Below are positions 2,984 through 32,166 of a stretch of DNA of 64,000 nt, piece by piece. A program made the translations under genes and the position numbers. Positions within the stretch are counted from its first letter, which is position 1, and every line of letters begins with the position of its first letter. Location: sequence record GQ981382. One strand, 5' to 3'. Origin of the DNA: Shigella phage SP18. The notes beneath the pieces were generated by a model. It made no database searches. It saw only the letters and a program-made list of their open reading frames with translations, and was not told where the DNA came from.

Positions 2984-4816
2984 TTATAGCGTCGCATTCA
3001 TCCAATCTTTGCGCTGCTGGGAATCTTTACCGAATAGCATTTCGAACAGTTCTTTCCAGTTGTCGGGCAATTGAACAACTTCGAATACCGGTTCAAGCAA
3101 TACGCGTTTATACTCGGAATCTTCCAGAGAGCCAAGCCCCTTGATATATCGAATGGTATGCTTCGGAAGTTTATCCTTAGCTTCTTCATAGTCAGGAAGA
3201 GAATAGAACCATTCTTGTTTATCTTTGAGCTGCGCAATAATAACAGGAGTTTTCACAAAGCGAATTCGTCCTTCATGGAACAGTTCTGGCCAGTTACTGA
3301 AAAACGCCAATAATGACGGATAGATACTACCGACACCATCCACATCCGCATCTGTCATGATAGCAATGTTTCGGTAATTCATATTCTCGGCCGGTTGTCC
3401 AATCGTTAAACCAGTAATCGCACACACATCAAAGGCTTCAGCGTTCTTCATAACTTCAACAGCTTTCAAACCCCATGTGTTTTTAAACTTACCACGTAAT
3501 GGATAAGCACCTTGCAATTCACGGTCACGAACCTTGATAAATGGACCAGTTGCAGAATCACCTTCGGTCAGGAACAGAGTCGTTTCCAACTTATCATTGC
3601 CCCATTCGTTGGCCTTAATATGCTTCTGTACCTTGGCCTTTGAAGCTTTCTTATTTGCCTTAGTCTCTGCTGCTTTCTCTGCAGCCAATTTACGGGCTAA
3701 TGCAGCTTCAACAATCGGCATAATCAGCGGTTCATTTTTCAGAATAGCTTGCGCGATTTTCTTAGCATCAATCTTAATGTGATTTCGAATTTCACCAGCC
3801 GGAGAAGTCAATCGCTCCTTAGTCTGGGAATCAAATCGCATGTTGCTCATATCGCGGATGAACATAAGCATGGTGAGACATTCTTTAACTCGTGCCTTGG
3901 TCACCTCGATGCCTTTATATTTGCGCTTAATCGCCGGCTGAAGGTGTTCACAGATATCATCCATAACACATTCAACGTGGTGTCCGCCATTCTTTGTATG
4001 AATGTTGTTGACATAAGTCAGCTGACGGAAACCATCTGGGCTGGTCGTAAAGGCCATCGATACTGTATCAGTTTCCTGGATAACAACTTCGGTTCCGAAT
4101 TGCTTGGAGAACTTCTTGAAATTACCATCAACCTTTTTACCATTAAAGGTGAACTGAATATCCGGATAAACAACCGCGAGAGTCTGCAGACGGTCCAATG
4201 TAATATCCAGATAAATCTGGGACAGACTATTTTCTTCAAAGTGACTAAAATCTGGAACAAATATAACAGTTGTACCTTTGCCCTTAGATTTCTTGGTCGA
4301 CCAACCTTTGTTTTCCATACCGTTGGAGCAGTTAACGGTGATTTCATTTGCACCATCAGCGGTAATCCCTGTGAACAATACGGAGAAAATATTGGTCAGA
4401 GAAGACCCGACGCCATTCATCCCGCCAGTTTTACGTTCAGCATCATCGCCGAAGTTACCACCAGCTTTTGGAATAGTCCATGCTGCAACAGGGCCAGGGA
4501 TTTGTTCACCGTTTTGGTCTGTAACCATTGCTTGAGGAATACCACGACCATTATCAGAAACCGAAATCTGATTATCTTTAATTTGAACATCAATTTTATT
4601 GGCAAATTTAAAACTGGTGCGAATTGCTTCATCAACAGAGTTATCGATAATTTCATCAATCAGTTTTACAATACCAGGAACATAGCTTACGGACTTATAT
4701 TCACCAAACAAGAATCGCTCATGCGCTTCATTTGAACTGGAACCAATATACATCCCGGAACGTTTTTTGATATGCTCGACGTCCGAGAGTACTTTAATTT
4801 CATTATTAATCATCAT
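2984..4816 (-). CDS. 39: DNA topoisomerase II large subunit, fused 39+60 form (GyrB-like ATPase plus Toprim)
   Basis: 610 aa; GHKL ATPase motifs (IDNSVDEA, DNGRGIP, GGMNGVGSS), Toprim EGDSA and MTDADVDG; continuous ORF, no gene-60 split. Confidence 0.9.
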   Translation of the reverse strand: MMINNEIKVLSDVEHIKKRSGMYIGSSSNEAHERFLFGEYKSVSYVPGIVKLIDEIIDNSVDEAIRTSFKFANKIDVQIKDNQISVSDNGRGIPQAMVTDQNGEQIPGPVAAWTIPKAGGNFGDDAERKTGGMNGVGSSLTNIFSVLFTGITADGANEITVNCSNGMENKGWSTKKSKGKGTTVIFVPDFSHFEENSLSQIYLDITLDRLQTLAVVYPDIQFTFNGKKVDGNFKKFSKQFGTEVVIQETDTVSMAFTTSPDGFRQLTYVNNIHTKNGGHHVECVMDDICEHLQPAIKRKYKGIEVTKARVKECLTMLMFIRDMSNMRFDSQTKERLTSPAGEIRNHIKIDAKKIAQAILKNEPLIMPIVEAALARKLAAEKAAETKANKKASKAKVQKHIKANEWGNDKLETTLFLTEGDSATGPFIKVRDRELQGAYPLRGKFKNTWGLKAVEVMKNAEAFDVCAITGLTIGQPAENMNYRNIAIMTDADVDGVGSIYPSLLAFFSNWPELFHEGRIRFVKTPVIIAQLKDKQEWFYSLPDYEEAKDKLPKHTIRYIKGLGSLEDSEYKRVLLEPVFEVVQLPDNWKELFEMLFGKDSQQRKDWMNATL

Positions 4817-4838
4817 CTTTCCTCTTGTGTATGGAGGT

Positions 4839-4863
4839 ATTATAAGTCACATATTTTAAAGCA
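4839..4863 (-). promoter_or_regulatory. candidate MotA-dependent middle promoter upstream of gene 39 (MotA box TGCTTTA plus TTATAAT)
   Basis: minus-strand reading tttGCTTtaaaatatgtgacTTATAAT about 25 nt upstream of the gene 39 ATG; spacing slightly short of T4 consensus. Confidence 0.35.
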
Positions 4864-4864
4864 A

Positions 4865-4884
4865 AAAGGCCCGAAGGCCTTTTA
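4865..4884 (-). terminator. hairpin terminator (GGCC-cgaa-GGCC with flanking U/A tracts)
   Basis: inverted repeat aaaGGCCcgaaGGCCttt; between upstream gene stop and gene 39 promoter. Confidence 0.5.
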
Positions 4885-5280
4885 TTTGAATCGAAGCTGC
4901 TCTAACATTTTAATAGCTTGTAGGCGTCCGGCTTCAGTTTTAACCGTAATAATAACATCACCGCCGGTAACAACGATATCCTCTTTTGATTCCTGTTCGG
5001 TTATTTCAGAATCACATTCTGGAACTTCTTCAAAATATTTAAATTCATCACCAAAAATAAGACCGGTTCCATTACGACTATGGAAAGAAAATCCAGTCCC
5101 ATCGATAGTACTAAATTCCGTAACAACATTTGAATCCATCTTAGTGACTGAAAACTCTTTGGTGGTAACCAAATCAATGATAGAGGTTCCTTGTTGGTTC
5201 AAAATACTACCAGGCATACCGACATGTTTAAGGAAGCCATCTAAATCTTTAATGCAATAACTCTTTCCAATTTTAAACAT
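4882..5280 (-). CDS. hypothetical protein (goF/39.x region)
   Basis: ORF track 4882..5295 starts at a TTG; first ATG (MFKIGKSY) preceded by GAGGA gives 132 aa. Confidence 0.5.
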   Translation of the reverse strand: MFKIGKSYCIKDLDGFLKHVGMPGSILNQQGTSIIDLVTTKEFSVTKMDSNVVTEFSTIDGTGFSFHSRNGTGLIFGDEFKYFEEVPECDSEITEQESKEDIVVTGGDVIITVKTEAGRLQAIKMLEQLRFK

Positions 5281-5287
5281 AATATCC

Positions 5288-5548
5288 TCATTCAAATCGG
5301 ATGGTTGAATTTTTAAACAGCAATCCAGAACAAACAGTTCCTTTAACTTTCTTACCGGTTGGGCCTACGGCTGTAAAACCAGTATGCTGAAAATCATCTT
5401 CAGAGCAACCCAACCAGTTATATCCGGTGATTTGGATTTGCTCATAGCCGTTTGCATCTAATACCCGAATGGCATTATCTGCATCAGTACAACCAGCCAA
5501 TGAAACCGCCAGTACCAGTGCTGCAATAGAACGATTAATGTATTTCAT
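5288..5548 (-). CDS. small lipoprotein (signal peptide with lipobox LAGC)
   Basis: MKYINRSIAALVLAVSLAGC N-terminus; ATG with GAGGAA SD. Confidence 0.6.
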   Translation of the reverse strand: MKYINRSIAALVLAVSLAGCTDADNAIRVLDANGYEQIQITGYNWLGCSEDDFQHTGFTAVGPTGKKVKGTVCSGLLFKNSTIRFE

Positions 5549-5732
5549 AATTCCTCACTTAGTCAGCAGGTCGTAAAAACCGCCATTAACATGTTTAGGA
5601 GCCGAGACTAACCGAACAGCCAGCCGATGGCAATCAGGACAAACATCATTATCTCTTTCAGAGATTTTCTTGATTTTTTCGTATTCTTTCGCGCAGTCAT
5701 TGGATTGGCATTTGTAGTCATAAAGTGGCATG

Positions 5733-6107
5733 TTATTCCTTAAAATGTGCTTTCAACATCTGGTAAACGGTCCAGGCTTCAGAGTTATTAGAAATGGTGA
5801 TTTTAGCCAAAGGGAATTCGCTTGGTTCAAATGCTTCATCAGCGTCTTCGCATTCATCTTCAGTATCGTCATCTTTTTCTTCTTCAAAGAAACGACGCTC
5901 ATCTTCCTTTATGAATATTCTCTCCATTCCACCGGTCGAAAATTCTATCCGATATACATCACCACCTTCAATTCCGACTGGTCTAAATCCTTCACCATTG
6001 ATTATAGCATCAGCTATATTATCATTATCAGAGCATAACAAACGGAATCTGCTTTCAGCAACATTATCTTTAAAATAATACCATTTATCAGTTTCAAATT
6101 TCAACAT
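5733..6107 (-). CDS. hypothetical acidic protein
   Basis: track ORF 5733..6248 overlaps upstream gene; internal ATG (MLKFETDKWYYF) with AAGGAGA SD gives 124 aa. Confidence 0.45.
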   Translation of the reverse strand: MLKFETDKWYYFKDNVAESRFRLLCSDNDNIADAIINGEGFRPVGIEGGDVYRIEFSTGGMERIFIKEDERRFFEEEKDDDTEDECEDADEAFEPSEFPLAKITISNNSEAWTVYQMLKAHFKE

Positions 6108-6324
6108 GATAAGTCTCCTTCCAAAAATCTGTACCATCTTCTGATTCTTCGCGGAACAGCGCATAGCTAGGTAGTTCCGCACCTTCATACGCATACACAT
6201 AAATGATATCAGTTGTGCAAAGAAATTCATTGATATTTTTCTTAACAATCACTTTATCACTTTCAGCGGTTTCCCAGAACTCTTCAGCGGTCAGGGAAGT
6301 GGTCACACAATCTTCATTAAACAT
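6094..6324 (-). CDS. hypothetical protein
   Basis: 76 aa, ATG with GAGGAGA SD. Confidence 0.5.
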   Translation of the reverse strand: MFNEDCVTTSLTAEEFWETAESDKVIVKKNINEFLCTTDIIYVYAYEGAELPSYALFREESEDGTDFWKETYHVEI

Positions 6325-6339
6325 AATATTCTCCTCATT

Positions 6340-6359
6340 GATAGGGCAAAAACCCTATC
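6340..6359 (-). terminator. hairpin (ATAGGG-caaaaa-CCCTAT) downstream of motB
   Basis: inverted repeat between motB stop and next gene. Confidence 0.35.
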
Positions 6360-6370
6360 ATTTTTATAAT

Positions 6371-6862
6371 TTAGGCAAAATGAATATCAGCATACTCAAC
6401 GATAAAGCTCTCAGGAACAACCTTAAAGGTTCCAAGGAATACGATATTATACAGTTTGACACCTTCTTCAACCCACTGGTCGGTGATGTAACCAGACATA
6501 CTAGTGGTTTCATAAGTCGGACCGTACTTGCAATTGTATTCAAACGGTTTAGGTGAAACGAAAAAGACACCTTTACCTAATTTCCATTTAAAATCAACCC
6601 CAACATGAGACTGGTCAATGGTTTCAACTTCTTCAACTACTGGAGCGATGTATCCAGTAAATTCAGTTGATTCCAGGAATTTAGGATGTACATAAGCCAA
6701 TTGAGTTTCAGCATGACCATGTTTAGGAATAATACGCACTTTAACTTCTTTAATTCCACCTACTAAATTAGTGCGAAGACTCACAACCTCAACAAAACGA
6801 CCAGCAGCTTTAGAACGAGATTCTTTAGAAACACGTACAATATCACCTTCTTCAACTTTCAT
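6371..6862 (-). CDS. motB: MotB-like modifier of transcription
   Basis: 163 aa, position and size match T4 MotB (162 aa); called from memory of the T4 sequence. Confidence 0.65.
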   Translation of the reverse strand: MKVEEGDIVRVSKESRSKAAGRFVEVVSLRTNLVGGIKEVKVRIIPKHGHAETQLAYVHPKFLESTEFTGYIAPVVEEVETIDQSHVGVDFKWKLGKGVFFVSPKPFEYNCKYGPTYETTSMSGYITDQWVEEGVKLYNIVFLGTFKVVPESFIVEYADIHFA

Positions 6863-6905
6863 AATTTTCTCTCTTGATTAATAAGTTTATTCTCCAGTGG
6901 GGTCA

Positions 6906-6934
6906 TTATACTCTGACCCCAAGAGTTTGTACAC
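6906..6934 (-). promoter_or_regulatory. early promoter (GTGTAC -35, 18-bp spacer, TATAAT -10) driving motB
   Basis: minus-strand GTGTACaaactcttggggtcagagTATAATgacccc; matches the recurrent promoter cassette. Confidence 0.6.
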
Positions 6935-6941
6935 TTTAAAT

Positions 6942-7697
6942 TTAATTAAAAATTTCAACAACCATGGAACGTGGGACAACAGTAAATTCACCAGCATGGA
7001 CAACGTTCAGGAGTTCAACACCATCTTCAATCCACTGGTCTGTTACCCAACCACAAATGGAACTGTTAAATGGGCGTTTGATTTGAACTGGTTTACATAG
7101 CAAGTCAATAGGGTCACCCAGCTCGCTAACTTCTTTTAGCAGTACAGATTCACGCGGATAAAGGATAGCTTCAAGATTGTCACCTGATTCATTGACTGCA
7201 GTAAATTCAAAGATGCTTTGGTGATTGTGGTACTTAACTGTTTTAACGGTAAATGGAGCAAATCCAAAAATACCTTTCAGTACCCGCCAACCAGCATGCA
7301 TTGCGACAGTCTTTCCAAATTGACTATCATCTTCAATAAGCTGATAGGTTTTACCAACTTTGATAGGAGTTTCTTCAACTTCTTTGAAGAGTTCAATCTC
7401 AGCTTCATAAACCATAATTTTTTCTACTTCATTTGTATCAAGGCGACGTGCATGTAGAATATATGCTTTATCAAACCAGTTACTTTTTACAAAAGTTTCA
7501 ACAATAAATTCACCTTCGCCTAAAGCATCAGTCAGAGTATTATACCCAGAAACCATAGCTGCATTTTGAATAATAGGTTCAATCAGTTGATAAGTTTTGT
7601 TAATTTCAATAGTCATATTTTGTTTCTCAAGTTTTAATGGTTTAATTGGGCGAACATACATACTTACAACATCAAAGTCAATAAATTCTGGTTTCAT
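6942..7697 (-). CDS. MotB paralog with N-terminal extension
   Basis: 251 aa; C-terminal ~60 aa (GWVTDQWIEDGVELLNVVHAGEFTVVPRSMVVE) aligns with MotB C-terminus (GYITDQWVEEGVKLYNIVFLGTFKVVPESFIVE). Confidence 0.6.
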   Translation of the reverse strand: MKPEFIDFDVVSMYVRPIKPLKLEKQNMTIEINKTYQLIEPIIQNAAMVSGYNTLTDALGEGEFIVETFVKSNWFDKAYILHARRLDTNEVEKIMVYEAEIELFKEVEETPIKVGKTYQLIEDDSQFGKTVAMHAGWRVLKGIFGFAPFTVKTVKYHNHQSIFEFTAVNESGDNLEAILYPRESVLLKEVSELGDPIDLLCKPVQIKRPFNSSICGWVTDQWIEDGVELLNVVHAGEFTVVPRSMVVEIFN

Positions 7698-7954
7698 TAT
7701 GCAACCTTATTGAACATCGCCAGTTGATTAGGTTGTACAACCATAATTTCACGACGACCTTTTGTATTTGACACGTTCAGGTAGATGCCTTTGTTCATGT
7801 CTGTTTCTTTATCATATACCGCAATTTTATTGACAGTAAAGATTTTACCACGAATATTTGCAAATGCACATTCAAACGCTTTAGTCAGACCTGCTTCAGC
7901 AGCTTGAAGAGCGGACATTTCATATTGTTGGCCAATTTCAAAAGAAGTAATCAT
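7697..7954 (-). CDS. hypothetical protein
   Basis: track ORF extends through promoter leader (translating STTDEDNKM); true ATG after conserved leader gives 85 aa. Confidence 0.5.
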   Translation of the reverse strand: MITSFEIGQQYEMSALQAAEAGLTKAFECAFANIRGKIFTVNKIAVYDKETDMNKGIYLNVSNTKGRREIMVVQPNQLAMFNKVA

Positions 7955-7985
7955 TTTGTTGTCCTCATCAGTAGTTGATGAGATG

Positions 7986-8015
7986 ATTATGTCTCTTTCC
8001 ATTGACCTTGTACAC
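7986..8015 (-). promoter_or_regulatory. early promoter (GTGTAC -35, CATAAT -10) with conserved leader ATCAACTACTGATGAGG
   Basis: recurrent cassette; leader ends in GAGGA SD before ATG at 7954. Confidence 0.6.
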
Positions 8016-8021
8016 TACTTT

Positions 8022-8705
8022 TTATCGTTTTTTCGGTAAAGATAACGGGTCTGCATCTTCTTCGGAAGGAACTTCATCCAAACCAAGGGCATAGCGCTGG
8101 GCATACTTCAACATCAAAATATCTTTCGCGCAGTCATGTACCGAATCGTGCGCCACGAATCCATCTAAAGTCCCCTTTGGTAATGGAGTTTCACACATCT
8201 TACGGACGAGTGACAAGGCTTCGATGGCTGTCCTGATATCTCGCTGGTTCCAGAATACAACCGGCTCCAGGCCATAGGTATTCAATTCACGCTCAGGAAT
8301 CCCCTCATTGCGCTGTAGGTCGCGGATAAGGTCAACAAACAACGGGAAGTCAAAAGACATTCCCCGACACCACATAAGGCTTTCGTATTTGTTAATTCCA
8401 TTACCATTCAGATAGTCAATCGCCTGTTGGATACCGGTCAGAGTATCAACATCATGCGCAGAAGGGACCAGGTTAACACGTGCTTCGGTTGATTGTTTTT
8501 TCCACCAACCCATAGTTGTTGTGTCGAACAGCCGCTTACCTTTTTGATATTCAAGGCTGAACTTAATGCGTTTGCCGCGATTAACCAGAGTTTCGAATGA
8601 TTCTACAATAGCAGGGTCAGATTCAAATGTAATCAGGGCCAGGTCAATAACGGCTCCCTTCGAGCCGTTTCCCAGAGTTTCAAAGTCAATAATAGCATCA
8701 ATCAT
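8022..8705 (-). CDS. dexA: exonuclease A (DnaQ-like 3'-5' exonuclease)
   Basis: 227 aa, same length as T4 DexA; DFETLG exo motif. Confidence 0.8.
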   Translation of the reverse strand: MIDAIIDFETLGNGSKGAVIDLALITFESDPAIVESFETLVNRGKRIKFSLEYQKGKRLFDTTTMGWWKKQSTEARVNLVPSAHDVDTLTGIQQAIDYLNGNGINKYESLMWCRGMSFDFPLFVDLIRDLQRNEGIPERELNTYGLEPVVFWNQRDIRTAIEALSLVRKMCETPLPKGTLDGFVAHDSVHDCAKDILMLKYAQRYALGLDEVPSEEDADPLSLPKKR

Positions 8706-8937
8706 CGCACATCTCTTTTAATTTCTGAATTTCGCCAGCAACATAGTCGGAGATAAAAATCCCTGGCTCTTCATTGTTAAAATATTCAATCGCGGCCATA
8801 CGTTTCCGAATAAGATTCAGTTCCAGTAAAACGTAATTACTCTGCACGACGATAGTCGGATTATCTTCGAAAAATTCAACCGCGTCCTGAATACCATAGA
8901 TGAGATTATCTAAATCTTCTTTATGTACCTTATACAT
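8698..8937 (-). CDS. hypothetical protein (dda.1 position)
   Basis: ATG 2 nt after dda stop; about 79 aa. Confidence 0.45.
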   Translation of the reverse strand: MYKVHKEDLDNLIYGIQDAVEFFEDNPTIVVQSNYVLLELNLIRKRMAAIEYFNNEEPGIFISDYVAGEIQKLKEMCDD

Positions 8938-10258
8938 AATATGCGTCGTACCTCGCTCGTGTGATTCCAACATAAGCCAACTGGCTCGCTAATGAAGCTT
9001 CGGCCATATGGATGCATGGAGTATAGATGAATGCTTTGTCCACTGAAACGCCCTGGGCCTTGTGGATTGTACTAACCGGAAGAGCACGAACTTTCAAGAA
9101 GGTCCGGCGAGCTTTCCAGAAGTCTTTCCACTCTGGACGTTTACCAGCGGCTTTCATCTGTTTGTATGTGTCAGCAACTTTAGCCAGATATGCCTGGAAT
9201 TTCGGTTGCTGGTCTTCTGGTAAAACTTTAATGCGGTCAACCTGATATTCTTCATCTTCATCAATTGACTCAACTTCCAGGTCCCAGTAATTAATCACTA
9301 ACTGGTGCGATTCCCCTTTACAACGGAGAATGGTGGAAGTGTATTTGCAATCCTTGATGCGAACCAACTGACCATTATTAAAAATGGTTTCGCTGAATTT
9401 CTTACCTTCAAATTCCAGCTCTTTCATGTGTGGCTCTTGCATAACCAGGACTTCATACGGTAAAAATGCTTTATCCGTTTCATAGAGCTTGCGACGAATA
9501 ATATTATTCAGTTTTTCAACTGATTTATTCGTGTACGCGTACATCCTGTTTTCCATCAACATATCAGCATCTTTTACAATACCGAAATAGTTTACCATGA
9601 AATCCTTTAAAGCGGTTTGTGAGGTGAAACCCTGTACGCCATGGCCATCATACATACAGTCGCGGAACCAACCCCCATTACGAATTTCTGTCGCCACTTC
9701 AATGATAGGAGCATTGCTTCGCATGACCTCAGTCAGATGAATCTGTTTGAACTTAGGATGCGTAAAGAATGGGCTTATCTTTTGTTGTGTGCTTCCTGGG
9801 TCAACTGGCTGCAGCTGGTGCATATCACCAATCCCAAGAATAGTACACCATTCAGGAACAGAGTTACAAATAATCTTAAACAGAGACCCATCATACATAC
9901 TTGCTTCATCACAAACCAGAACATTACATTTTGACATGTCAGGCATTTCACGCTGTTCAAAAATGTTTTGGTCTTCATATGTGGTCGGGTTAATCTTCAG
10001 GATACTATGGATTGTATTCGCCGTTTGACCAGACAATTTAGATAGAACCTTTTTTGCCTGGTGAGTTGGTGCAGCAAGCACAATTCCCATAACTCCATTA
10101 CGCACTAAATGGTCAATGACAAATTTTGTCAGAGTAGTTTTACCTGTGCCAGCTGGGCCATTCAGAGTGATACATTCCCCCGAACGTCGCTGAATAGCTT
10201 CAGTGATATAATCAAAAGCTTCTTTTTGTCCTGTATTCAAGTCTTCAAATTTAATCAT
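8930..10258 (-). CDS. dda: Dda SF1B DNA helicase
   Basis: 442 aa; Walker A GPAGTGKTT; size and position as T4 Dda. Confidence 0.9.
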   Translation of the reverse strand: MIKFEDLNTGQKEAFDYITEAIQRRSGECITLNGPAGTGKTTLTKFVIDHLVRNGVMGIVLAAPTHQAKKVLSKLSGQTANTIHSILKINPTTYEDQNIFEQREMPDMSKCNVLVCDEASMYDGSLFKIICNSVPEWCTILGIGDMHQLQPVDPGSTQQKISPFFTHPKFKQIHLTEVMRSNAPIIEVATEIRNGGWFRDCMYDGHGVQGFTSQTALKDFMVNYFGIVKDADMLMENRMYAYTNKSVEKLNNIIRRKLYETDKAFLPYEVLVMQEPHMKELEFEGKKFSETIFNNGQLVRIKDCKYTSTILRCKGESHQLVINYWDLEVESIDEDEEYQVDRIKVLPEDQQPKFQAYLAKVADTYKQMKAAGKRPEWKDFWKARRTFLKVRALPVSTIHKAQGVSVDKAFIYTPCIHMAEASLASQLAYVGITRARYDAYYV

Positions 10259-18798: not shown

Positions 18799-19002
18799 TT
18801 ATTTTTCGTTAGAACGATAATCATATTCAAAAACTTTATTGTCATTAACAAAGGCTTTAACCAGCGCATTATTCACTTCTGCATACTGCACTGTAACCCA
18901 TTCAATCATATTTTTGTCACTGACATCCAGCGCGGTTTCTTTGGTAAACATATTACCATTTTCAAACCAACCAATAAACACTACGTTCTCTAATTTATAC
19001 AT
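18799..19002 (-). CDS. dmd: Dmd antitoxin-like protein (inhibitor of host RnlA/LsoA toxins)
   Basis: 67 aa; VVFIGWFENGNMFTKE...VQYAEVNNALVKAF closely resembles T4 Dmd. Confidence 0.75.
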   Translation of the reverse strand: MYKLENVVFIGWFENGNMFTKETALDVSDKNMIEWVTVQYAEVNNALVKAFVNDNKVFEYDYRSNEK

Positions 19003-30245: not shown

Positions 30246-30437
30246 TTAATCAAAGTATTCATATGCGAACCAGGCTTTGTGTCTGTTCGCGATTATTTTA
30301 ACATATTCTTCACCGAAAGCGTTTTGTAAGTCACGTTCAGTAACAAGGTGTTCATCTTTCGAAAAGGTATTAACTAACACATACCGTTTAATTTCAGGGA
30401 CAGCCAGTAAATGCTGCCCGGTTAAGAAGTCAGCCAT
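30246..30437 (-). CDS. small hypothetical protein (45.2 position)
   Basis: about 63 aa from MADFLTGQ, avoiding overlap with gene 46. Confidence 0.4.
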   Translation of the reverse strand: MADFLTGQHLLAVPEIKRYVLVNTFSKDEHLVTERDLQNAFGEEYVKIIANRHKAWFAYEYFD

Positions 30438-30471
30438 AATAGCCTCTATTATAACATCCTTGTTTAAAGCA

Positions 30472-32166
30472 TTATTCCATAACAGTGAATCGACCAACTT
30501 TTTTCATCTGGAGATGTTGCCCGTATGCTTCCGGGTCATGGTCTCGGTGACTGATAATAAAGATGTTGGTGTCTTCCAATTTGTTCAGGATGGTAGCAAT
30601 TGCTTTAACACCCTCTACATCGGTGGCCGAGTCAAAAACTTCATCCAGAATCAAGGTGTTAATATTAACACCAGATACTTTCGCAGCAATATCACGCCAT
30701 GTAAACAGCAATGCAATATCGATACGAGCTTTTTCACCCTGGCTAAATGATGCATAGCTGAAGTCTTCACGTCCACGAGATTTAATCGTTTCGTTGAACT
30801 CTTCATCTAACGTAAAACTATAATCAGCTTCCATAACTTTAAGGTAAGCGTTTATCTGCTTATTAAAGATAGGAATATATTTCTTAATAATCGCACCTTT
30901 GATACCGGAATCTTTCAACATATCCGTTAGGATGCCACGTTGATATTTTTCCATCACAAGGTCAGATTTCTGTTTGACTATTTTATCAAGCTGGTCTTGA
31001 AGCATTTTAATGTCTGCTGCATGGTCGATGAATTCTGACTTAGCTTGCTCGATTAATGCTTTAACCTTTTTAGCTTTTTCGACAGTCTGGACTAAGGTTT
31101 GTTTCTTAGTTTGAATGTCTTGAGCTATTGTACGTTGTTTTTGTCTTGCAGCAGAATACGCATCAAATTGCTCCTGAACAGCGTTCTGGCGAGCTTTATG
31201 GTTATCAGCTGATACATTACATTCTTCAATCTTTGACTCAATCCTGGCGACAATGGGGTCTCCTGGATGCAACTGACTGGCACAAGTCTGACAGCAACCA
31301 CCTTTCTCGTACAGACCAACAACCTTTCGGTAATCGTCTATCTTCGACTTAATCAGGAATGATTCCTGCTTTAACTTCGTGAGTTCATGCTCAGGGTCTT
31401 CTCCCAAGATTATCTCAGTCAGTCTTGTCGTTGCTTCTTCGATAGTCGTTTTGATTCCACGTGCTTCTGTGGCAAGTTCATCATACATCGTTTGCAGCCG
31501 CAACAGATTATCACCTGATAATTTTCTTTGACGGTCTTCGTTGTCCTGATAGATTTTAATCTGTTGAACAATCCCGTCATGCTGCACATCCATCACCTGG
31601 ATTTGACTATTGACTTCGCGGATAAGAGATTTGTTCAGCTTATCCATATCGGCCAGTACAGAAACCTCTAAAAGGTCTTCGACAAGTTTTCTTCTTGCAG
31701 GAGTGGATAGGCCCATAAAAGGGGTATATCCAGCTGTGCCGAGTACGACAATCTGTTTGAAGCTCGCATAGGACATTCCGATGAGCTGTTCAAATTCCGC
31801 TTGGAAGTCTTTACTGCTGGCAGATTCATCAAGACGTTTACCGCCACAAGAGATTTCAAAAACATTGGGTTTTTGCCCGCGTTTGATATAGTATTCTTTT
31901 CCATCATATTCCATCCACAATTCAACGAGCATATCTTTTTTGTTGCTCGAGTTAATCAGCTGGCCTTTCTTTACATCACGAAAAGGCTTACCGAACATAG
32001 CAAAGGTAACCGCTTCAAGGAACGTAGATTTACCCGCGCCATTCTTACCGGTGACCAGAGTTTTTTGGACTTTATCCAGTTCAACAGTAATCGGTTGAGC
32101 ACCAACCGACATAATATTTTTATAGATAACTTTCTTAAGCTTAAAAGTCTTCATCGTAATAAGCAT
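30472..32166 (-). CDS. 46: recombination/repair ATPase gp46 (Rad50/SbcC-like)
   Basis: 564 aa; Walker A GKNGAGKST, long coiled coil, CxxC zinc hook, C-terminal LILDEVFD. Confidence 0.9.
   Translation of the reverse strand: MLITMKTFKLKKVIYKNIMSVGAQPITVELDKVQKTLVTGKNGAGKSTFLEAVTFAMFGKPFRDVKKGQLINSSNKKDMLVELWMEYDGKEYYIKRGQKPNVFEISCGGKRLDESASSKDFQAEFEQLIGMSYASFKQIVVLGTAGYTPFMGLSTPARRKLVEDLLEVSVLADMDKLNKSLIREVNSQIQVMDVQHDGIVQQIKIYQDNEDRQRKLSGDNLLRLQTMYDELATEARGIKTTIEEATTRLTEIILGEDPEHELTKLKQESFLIKSKIDDYRKVVGLYEKGGCCQTCASQLHPGDPIVARIESKIEECNVSADNHKARQNAVQEQFDAYSAARQKQRTIAQDIQTKKQTLVQTVEKAKKVKALIEQAKSEFIDHAADIKMLQDQLDKIVKQKSDLVMEKYQRGILTDMLKDSGIKGAIIKKYIPIFNKQINAYLKVMEADYSFTLDEEFNETIKSRGREDFSYASFSQGEKARIDIALLFTWRDIAAKVSGVNINTLILDEVFDSATDVEGVKAIATILNKLEDTNIFIISHRDHDPEAYGQHLQMKKVGRFTVME

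Follow-up and report, generated by a model that had tools for sequence, protein, structure and literature searches.

Two genes that follow one another in the phage DNA analysed here (a single stretch of 64,000 nucleotides, referred to below as the window) encode proteins of 251 and 163 residues, and the question raised by this locus is what relates them. An earlier note had described the pair as tandem paralogs that arose by duplication and divergence of a host-nucleoid or transcription modifier. Our answer, to which we attach a probability of about 85%, is that the interval holds the T4-type early genes motB.1 and motB in their Gaprivervirus form, the products of which share a C-terminal barrel and carry unrelated heads, in a family apparently shaped by module shuffling. 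The relation between MotB and MotB.1 and the LSm-like N-terminal domain of the latter are already published. Son et al. (2021, Viruses 13:84; PMC7827196), whose alignment covered 102 phage homologs, described a common C-terminal domain with differing N-terminal domains in MotB and MotB.1, found both genes in 40 other genomes and proposed duplication of one gene from the other; their Table S4 includes the Gaprivervirus MotB.1 proteins of SP18, VR7, VR20, VR25 and VR26. The N-terminal domain of MotB.1 was assigned by Kim et al. (2025; PMC12152347) to an LSm-like family that also contains GoF and Frd.2. As the motB/motB.1 pair is published, the finding of tandem paralogs is a rediscovery, and what is added here is the anatomy of the N-terminal region of about 192 residues, its contrast with the KOW domain of MotB, the acidic shared domain with its apparently SH3-like order and an extra G in the T4 reference sequence.

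The window comes from a Gaprivervirus, a T4 relative of the VR7/SP18/CJ20 type. Over the region 4800-8100 the Escherichia phages PSD2001 and CJ20 are 97% identical at the nucleotide level, and the proteins of VR7 and VR25 are 84-93% identical to those encoded there; the MotB of Shigella phage SP18 is 100% identical to the 163-residue protein, while proteins of UPEC01 and VR25 are 93-99% identical to the 251-residue one, the gene for which is called MotB.1 in the existing annotation of VR7. According to the ORF map all genes in the motB part of the window lie on the minus strand (Table 1), and the order dda-dexA-...-motB.1-motB-cef-goF-39 is common to the window, VR7 and T4. The 251-residue ORF was correctly placed by the earlier note directly upstream of motB in the direction of transcription, and motB.1 sits upstream of motB in T4 too, where the order is dexA - motB.2 - motB.1 - motB - cef - goF; no homolog of T4 motB.2 was found in the 64-kb window. 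The start codon of motB.1 overlaps the stop codon of the 101-residue ORF upstream of it (TAATG).

Table 1. Genes, protein domains and spacer elements in the motB part of the window (positions in the window; aa, residues of the protein named).
Feature	Position	Strand	Evidence or remark
gp39 topoisomerase subunit	2984-4816	-	Pfam/PHROGs
137-aa GoF-like ORF	4882-5295	-	phrog_622 link
39.1 lipoprotein	5288-5548	-	Pfam/PHROGs
39.2 zinc ribbon	5555-5731	-	Pfam/PHROGs
goF	about 5733-6104	-	Pfam/PHROGs (phrog_622 link)
cef	6094-6324	-	Pfam/PHROGs
motB CDS, 163 aa + stop, T4-type early DNA-binding protein	6371-6862	-	Pfam PF17613, PHROG 1671 (E = 1.4e-66)
MotB C-terminal domain (aa 86-163)	6374-6607	-	BLAST core aa 119-156, nt 6395-6508
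MotB acidic linker, predicted disordered (aa 67-85)	6608-6664	-	pLDDT <50 at 68-84; net charge -5
MotB N-terminal KOW/SH3-like barrel, basic (aa 1-66)	6665-6862	-
Conserved hairpin GGGGTCA-N8-TGACCCC around -10 box	6899-6920	-	RNAalifold
motB sigma-70/T4-early-type promoter-like site, TGTACA-17-TATAAT	6905-6933	-	10/12 match
motB.1 CDS, 251 aa + stop	6942-7697	-	PHROG 2333, E = 4.6e-79
MotB.1 C-terminal domain (aa 193-251)	6945-7121	-	BLAST core aa 211-248, nt 6954-7067
MotB.1 domain B (aa 110-192), second LSm-like barrel, homologous to A	7122-7370	-
MotB.1 domain A (aa 28-109), LSm-like/SH3-like alpha+beta barrel, KIT06 type	7371-7616	-	pLDDT ~80-88
MotB.1 leader (aa 1-27), motif IDFDVVSMYVxPxKPL	7617-7697	-	pLDDT <50
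101-aa ORF	7697-8002	-	ORF map
dexA	8022-8705	-	Pfam/PHROGs
dexA.1-like	8698-8973	-	Pfam/PHROGs
dda	8930-10258	-	Pfam/PHROGs

The C-terminal domains of MotB and MotB.1 are homologous, as the earlier note had claimed. BLASTP aligns the two cores listed in Table 1 with 20/38 identities, 29/38 positives, no gaps and E = 1e-12; the Smith-Waterman score of the two proteins is 119, against 32.5 +/- 5.3 (maximum 70) for 2000 shuffles (z = 16); and when family profiles built from 40 MotB.1 and 50 MotB homologs were compared over the C-terminal part with hhalign, the probability was 99.3% (E = 6.3e-21, 51 aligned columns). The profile match pairs residues 95-158 of MotB with 200-250 of MotB.1 and places in MotB, relative to MotB.1, a 13-residue insertion that follows the first strand and precedes the conserved core. 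On the 251-residue protein the Pfam motB model reaches 35.5 bits (gathering cutoff 25), although over residues 211-247 only (profile positions 118-154). The confident extent of the shared module is therefore small, only about 51-59 residues, with the core consensus G[WY][VI]TDQW[VI]E[DE]GV[EK]L[LY]N[VI]V...VVP, and this domain is the best-conserved part of both families. That the similarity is due to chance or composition, a reading that could appeal to a BLASTP alignment of just 38 or so residues, is refuted by these E-values and the shuffling test, by the Pfam score above the gathering cutoff and by the agreement of the predicted strand patterns.

The module occurs in exactly two copies in the window; marginal matches at 18799-19002 (E = 0.03) and 30246-30497 (E = 0.01, with a domain A HMM) look like chance. 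When the C-terminal profile was run against 1.84 billion representative proteins just 35 matched at E<=0.001 (about 30 of them shorter than 250 residues), so the module is narrowly distributed, and this exhaustive search brought up no new context beyond small Tevenvirinae-like proteins. Several long multi-stretch proteins (P0259, P0260, P0263-P0265 and P0268) gave only weak matches to this profile.

The structural comparison suggested by the earlier note also came out in favour of a shared domain. In AlphaFold2 (AF2) models of moderate confidence (pLDDT 78 for MotB and 74 for the 251-residue protein), from which the order of secondary structure elements was read, both proteins show the same five-strand C-terminal pattern, in which a short helix separates strand 4 from strand 5. 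The strands fall at 98-110, 116-132, 135-142, 145-150 and 154-157 in MotB (pLDDT 82-94) and at 203-206, 214-224, 227-234, 237-242 and 246-248 in MotB.1, the helix preceding the last strand in each. Some 85-95 residues of MotB are without counterpart in MotB.1. Outside this domain the two proteins are differently built. PF17613 spans MotB from residue 2 to 162 (profile 2-161, E = 2.6e-51), which makes the 163-residue protein a member of that family including its KOW-like N-terminal domain, modelled as a five-strand barrel at residues 8-65 and followed by the disordered linker. The 251-residue protein does not match PF17613 along its length; it carries the MotB C-terminal domain and is not a MotB ortholog. 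It has instead the features that mark MotB.1, namely the DPxDLL...GWVTDQWIEDGVELLNVVHAG C-terminal core, an N-terminal domain that is not KOW and a gene lying between dexA and motB.

The N-terminal part of MotB.1 consists of a leader followed by two LSm-like barrels in tandem, which are homologous to each other. The homology of domains A and B is supported by a Smith-Waterman z of 11.5 (none of 2000 shuffles reached the score), by hhalign (probability 99.1%, E = 6.8e-19, 34% identity over 80 columns) and by the finding of domain B with a domain A HMM at i-E = 7.6e-17. The AF2 elements run in parallel, with E35-38, H46-59, E63-71, E78-85, E91-97, H98-103 and E104-107 in domain A, and E117-120, H131-144, E149-157, E162-169, E174-179, H181-186 and E187-190 in domain B, and the model has the N-terminal bent five-stranded antiparallel beta-sheet (small barrel) that characterizes the LSm-like family. 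Domain A is about 65% identical to the 180-residue Tequatrovirus MotB.1 and weakly matches the GoF-like family phrog_622 (E = 0.004). As candidate relatives of the MotB.1 N-terminal domains we also tried the 101-residue and 137-residue ORFs, the GoF of the window and T4 GoF, all of which were not significant by hhalign. Nor did hhalign relate the MotB.1 N-terminal domains to that of MotB (probability below 1%). The earlier note's 'extension of about 150 residues' has consequently to be corrected in two respects, in that about 192-200 residues are without counterpart in MotB and in that MotB has an unrelated N-terminal domain and a linker of its own. Statements describing a tandem-barrel architecture for MotB.1 were not found in PMC7827196 or PMC12152347, the only papers of the library searched in which motB.1 is named.

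The leader motif is conserved yet predicted to be disordered, and its position relative to the LSm domains is mobile; residues D7, D9 and P20 are invariant in 40 MotB.1 homologs, and in RB69-type and KOW-type relatives the motif stands directly before the C-terminal domain. The idea that the leader represents a displaced version of the first strand of the MotB C-terminal domain (the segment 'HVGVDFKW') was rejected (hhalign probability 0.3%, and the leader is disordered in the AF2 model).

The relatives of MotB.1 combine these modules in many ways. The T4 type (143 residues in re-sequenced T4) joins an LSm-like N-terminal domain to the C-terminal domain; the KIT06 type (180 residues) has a short N-peptide, leader, domain A and C-terminal domain; P0095 (165 residues) has leader, domain B and C-terminal domain; and the window protein has leader, A, B and C-terminal domain. 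In P0008 and P0252 (about 247 residues) a third N-terminal domain precedes leader, A and C-terminal domain, in the RB69-like P0253 (164 residues) the leader lies between an LSm-like N-terminal domain and the C-terminal domain, and in P0247, P0249, P0250 and P0255-P0257 (157-199 residues) a MotB-like KOW domain is followed by the leader and a C-terminal domain of the MotB.1 type. Because residues 112-251 of the window protein are collinear with intact T4 MotB.1 (47% identity, E = 2e-35) and P0095 is 62% identical to its B plus C-terminal part, the 251-residue form appears to combine a KIT06-type 'leader + A' unit with a 'B + C-terminal domain' unit of the P0095/T4 type. This variety of combinations argues for module shuffling rather than simple whole-gene duplication and divergence, so that the family looks to have been built around the C-terminal domain by shuffling and not only by tandem duplication. 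Duplication and divergence, as put forward by the earlier note, thus has the support of a proposal in print (PMC7827196), but the unrelated N-terminal domains and the varied combinations of modules favour shuffling.

The T4 and RB69 reference sequences of motB.1 both carry frameshifts in the shared domain. In the T4 reference (NC_000866.4, identical to AF158101.6) motB.1 contains an additional G near position 7325 (GGATTGGAAGATGG vs GGATTGAAGATGG), as a result of which the annotated protein ends ...GWVTDQWIGRWR at a stop codon in the middle of the shared core, at 119 instead of 143 residues, with the rest of the domain encoded in the +1 frame. When aligned, the re-sequenced T4 genomes MT984581 and KJ477684 lack the extra G, and in MT984581 MotB.1 is annotated and translated as 143 residues with the domain intact; about 12 further T4-type records (T4 isolates, RB55 and RB59) match at 99.3-99.8% and are, to judge from match lengths, mostly one base shorter. 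The constructs of Kim et al. (2025) derive from NC_000866.4 and their MotB.1 is quoted as 13.8 kDa (PMC12152347), which is the 119-residue form, and the T4 MotB.1 construct in their RNA reporter assay appears to be this truncated form. The truncated reference annotation therefore bears on how the published MotB.1 experiments are read, and a frameshift in motB.1 is mentioned in neither PMC7827196 nor PMC12152347. In the RB69 reference motB.1 contains two frameshifts in the C-terminal domain. What Son et al. list as a '29-aa Category 3 peptide' is the out-of-frame tail of RB69 motB.1.

Frameshifts in two reference genomes, together with the report that deletion of T4 motB.1 has no laboratory phenotype (PMC12152347), might be taken to mean that motB.1 is a decaying, functionless duplicate in which the similarity to motB survives as a relic. 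We consider this very unlikely. The T4 'frameshift' is absent from the two re-sequenced T4 genomes aligned, the further T4-type records described above mostly score one base shorter, and intact homologs of the RB69 type exist, among them P0253. By tblastn 747 phage records match the MotB.1 query, 383 of them covering at least 80% of it, and 25 of the 39 invariant columns among 40 MotB.1 homologs lie within residues 195-236, these 25 residues being conserved across proteins with N-terminal domains no more than about 35% identical. This pattern of conservation points toward purifying selection on MotB.1.

The two genes are separated by a spacer of 79 bp. It contains a promoter-like site for motB that aligns with the T4 intergenic GTTTACA...TATAAT, and a hairpin for which RNAalifold on five phages gave 7 pairs, two of which show compensatory changes (in T4 the arms are GGGACCA/TGGTCCC). 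Both compensatory changes separate the window phage from T4.

What the heads and the shared domain might do is suggested by charge and fold. Net charge and pI were computed over 50 MotB and 40 MotB.1 homologs, a crude measure in that DNA could still be bound through a local basic patch of an otherwise acidic domain. The mean net charge is +5.5 (pI about 10) for the KOW head of MotB, -5.4 (pI 4.6) for its linker and -2.6 (pI 5.7) for its C-terminal domain, and -4.2 (pI 4.4) for the C-terminal domain in MotB.1; whole MotB.1 proteins range from -5 to -17, that of the window being at -13 (pI 4.9). The KOW domain is the sole basic part across both proteins. As to fold, the helix of an OB fold follows strand 3 and precedes strand 4, while the SH3-like pattern consists of four meander strands, a short helix and then strand 5. 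The position of the C-terminal helix in both AF2 models corresponds to the SH3-like order, as an order of secondary structure elements and not as a 3D topology. A search of PDB sequences with the MotB profile gave no match at E<=1.

It is for MotB of T4 that functional data exist. T4 MotB binds DNA tightly and non-specifically, copurifies on DNA with H-NS and StpA, alters H-NS footprints, de-represses H-NS-silenced genes (75 host genes), is toxic and raises burst size two-fold (PMC6070864, PMC7827196). The earlier note's host-nucleoid modifier is thus supported as far as T4 MotB goes, but a role in the nucleoid or in transcription is putative at most for MotB.1, the T4 deletion of which has no phenotype. 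On account of the distribution of charge across the families we tentatively propose a division of labour, possible in our view although short of probable, in which the basic KOW head would supply the DNA affinity of MotB and the shared acidic domain would be a common protein-contact or oligomerization module, or perhaps one with a structural role alone. In that case MotB.1 would present the same partner with a head of another kind, LSm-like and perhaps binding RNA or protein, and would not be a second non-specific DNA binder.

The alternative that survives best is that the shared domain is itself a DNA-binding OB fold of the cold-shock type, so that MotB and MotB.1 would both be nucleoid modifiers, the N-terminal domains tuning specificity or partners. 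Son et al. (2021) assigned the MotB C-terminal domain to a cold-shock-like OB fold by HHpred, through the C-terminal OB folds of eIF5A, and considered that either MotB domain could bind DNA (PMC7827196); its standing as the best-conserved part of both families fits such a role as well. We nevertheless find this unlikely, though deserving of consideration, as the domain is acidic across both sets of homologs, the predicted strand order is SH3-like and the matches to EF-P/eIF5A may involve the SH3-like domain I of those proteins, the matching query domain not having been reported. With the shared module acidic, 'DNA-binding' becomes the less likely half of the 'DNA- or partner-binding module' of the earlier note, and the partner half remains.

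The division of labour between heads and shared domain could be taken one step further, to the rather improbable case in which the shared acidic barrel is an adaptor that acts on a common partner (H-NS/StpA, or through pairing of MotB with MotB.1), the KOW head being used for DNA and one or two LSm-like barrels for RNA. Were this so, phages of the subfamily would bring exchangeable heads for nucleic acid binding to a single host target, and the double-LSm MotB.1 would serve for RNA as MotB does for DNA; the negative published assays of T4 MotB.1 would also be uninformative, because the form used was without most of the shared domain. Charge and strand order together suggest that DNA binding be sought in the KOW head and the partner in the shared domain, for which the architectures of the relatives and of the double-LSm protein itself provide natural domain-swap constructs.

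Set beside known systems, the 163-residue protein is a full-length ortholog of T4 MotB, with the KOW-like N-terminal domain, the linker and the conserved C-terminal domain; its identity to P0188, a T4-type representative, is about 58%, and genomic position and early promoter are alike. It differs in overall charge, the window MotB having a net charge of -3 and a pI of 6.0 in contrast to the pI of 9.2 of T4 MotB (PMC6070864), and so is not basic overall. In the GoF family, of which Frd.2 is also a member, an effect on RNA was seen with the mutant GoF(D25Y) only, wild-type GoF being without strong effect and T4 MotB.1 being without effect in the RNA reporter (PMC12152347), and in our hhalign profile tests the sequence link of the MotB.1 N-terminal domains to GoF or Frd.2 was not significant. 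[quoted passage not shown] From the T4 and KIT06 types of MotB.1 it differs in length and in having two N-terminal barrels in addition to the leader. T7 gp5.5 and T4 Arn are reportedly early proteins of phages that antagonize silencing by H-NS, and some such proteins are acidic; the window MotB.1 is likewise acidic, and the likeness of the MotB/MotB.1 pair to these proteins is one of functional analogy only.

Alignment of motB.1 from the T4 reference genome (NC_000866.4) with the same gene in two re-sequenced T4 genomes (MT984581 and KJ477684) revealed a single additional G (GGATTgGAAGATGG) in the reference that is present in neither of the others. As annotated, the reference MotB.1 is a protein of 119 aa terminating inside the MotB-like core (GWVTDQWIGRWR*), the C-terminal module common to MotB and MotB.1, and translation of MT984581 motB.1 gives a 143-aa protein in which this shared domain is intact. 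In about 12 other T4-type records motB.1 appears one base shorter, as judged by match score, one-by-one alignment being confined to MT984581 and KJ477684. Published experiments on MotB.1 cite the reference coordinates and the 13.8-kDa (119-aa) protein (Kim et al., 2025; PMC12152347). The same C-terminal domain is broken by two frameshifts in the RB69 reference, where a separately annotated 29-aa ORF is its out-of-frame tail; this peptide was placed in ‘Category 3’ by Son et al. (2021; PMC7827196). An unbroken RB69-like homologue of MotB.1 (P0253) is 164 aa long, and motB itself is full-length in RB69, in two tandem copies.

Features of the motB region and of the T4 and RB69 motB.1 genes (window coordinates unless an accession is given)
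Feature	Coordinates	Strand	Remarks
GoF-like 137-aa ORF	4882-5295	-	phrog_622; extra paralog adjoining gene 39
goF	5733-6125	-	phrog_622
Hairpin GGGGTCA-N8-TGACCCC	6899-6920	-	spacer between motB.1 and motB
MotB.1 leader (aa 1-27)	7617-7697	-	conserved motif IDFDVVSMYVxPxKPL
101-aa ORF	7697-8002	-	phrog_17795, a family without assigned function
T4 reference motB.1	NC_000866.4 5292-5651	-	compared with MT984581 310-741 and KJ477684
RB69 motB.1 region	NC_004928.1 1658-2154		two frameshifts in C-terminal domain

The leader of MotB.1 is disordered in the AlphaFold model, and D7, D9 and P20 of its motif are invariant (n = 40 homologues). In other relatives the motif lies immediately N-terminal to the C-terminal domain, and the N-terminal domain that precedes it is of the LSm-like type in some and of the KOW type in others. 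These features suggest a short linear motif with a separate function. The two MotB.1 barrels may be among four LSm-like domains encoded in a 3-kb stretch, in which the 39.1/39.2 genes are flanked by the two GoF-like genes (the Pfam FRD2 match of the 137-aa paralog is weak, E = 0.011).

In the motB.1 transcript the spacer hairpin could represent a 3′ structure; its loop and 3′ arm take in the −10 box (TATAAT) of the early-type motB promoter. At the corresponding place T4 has GGGACCA/TGGTCCC, and thus two pairs are altered on both sides with pairing kept.

No motB.2 homologue was found anywhere in the 64-kb window; the 101-aa ORF, whose stop overlaps the motB.1 start (TAATG), sits between dexA and motB.1, where T4 has motB.2. 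The MotB proteins also differ in whole-protein charge: that of the window (6374-6862, minus strand) is slightly acidic (net −3, pI 6.0), with only the KOW head carrying basic charge, offset by the acidic linker, whereas T4 MotB has been described as highly basic (pI 9.2; PMC6070864).
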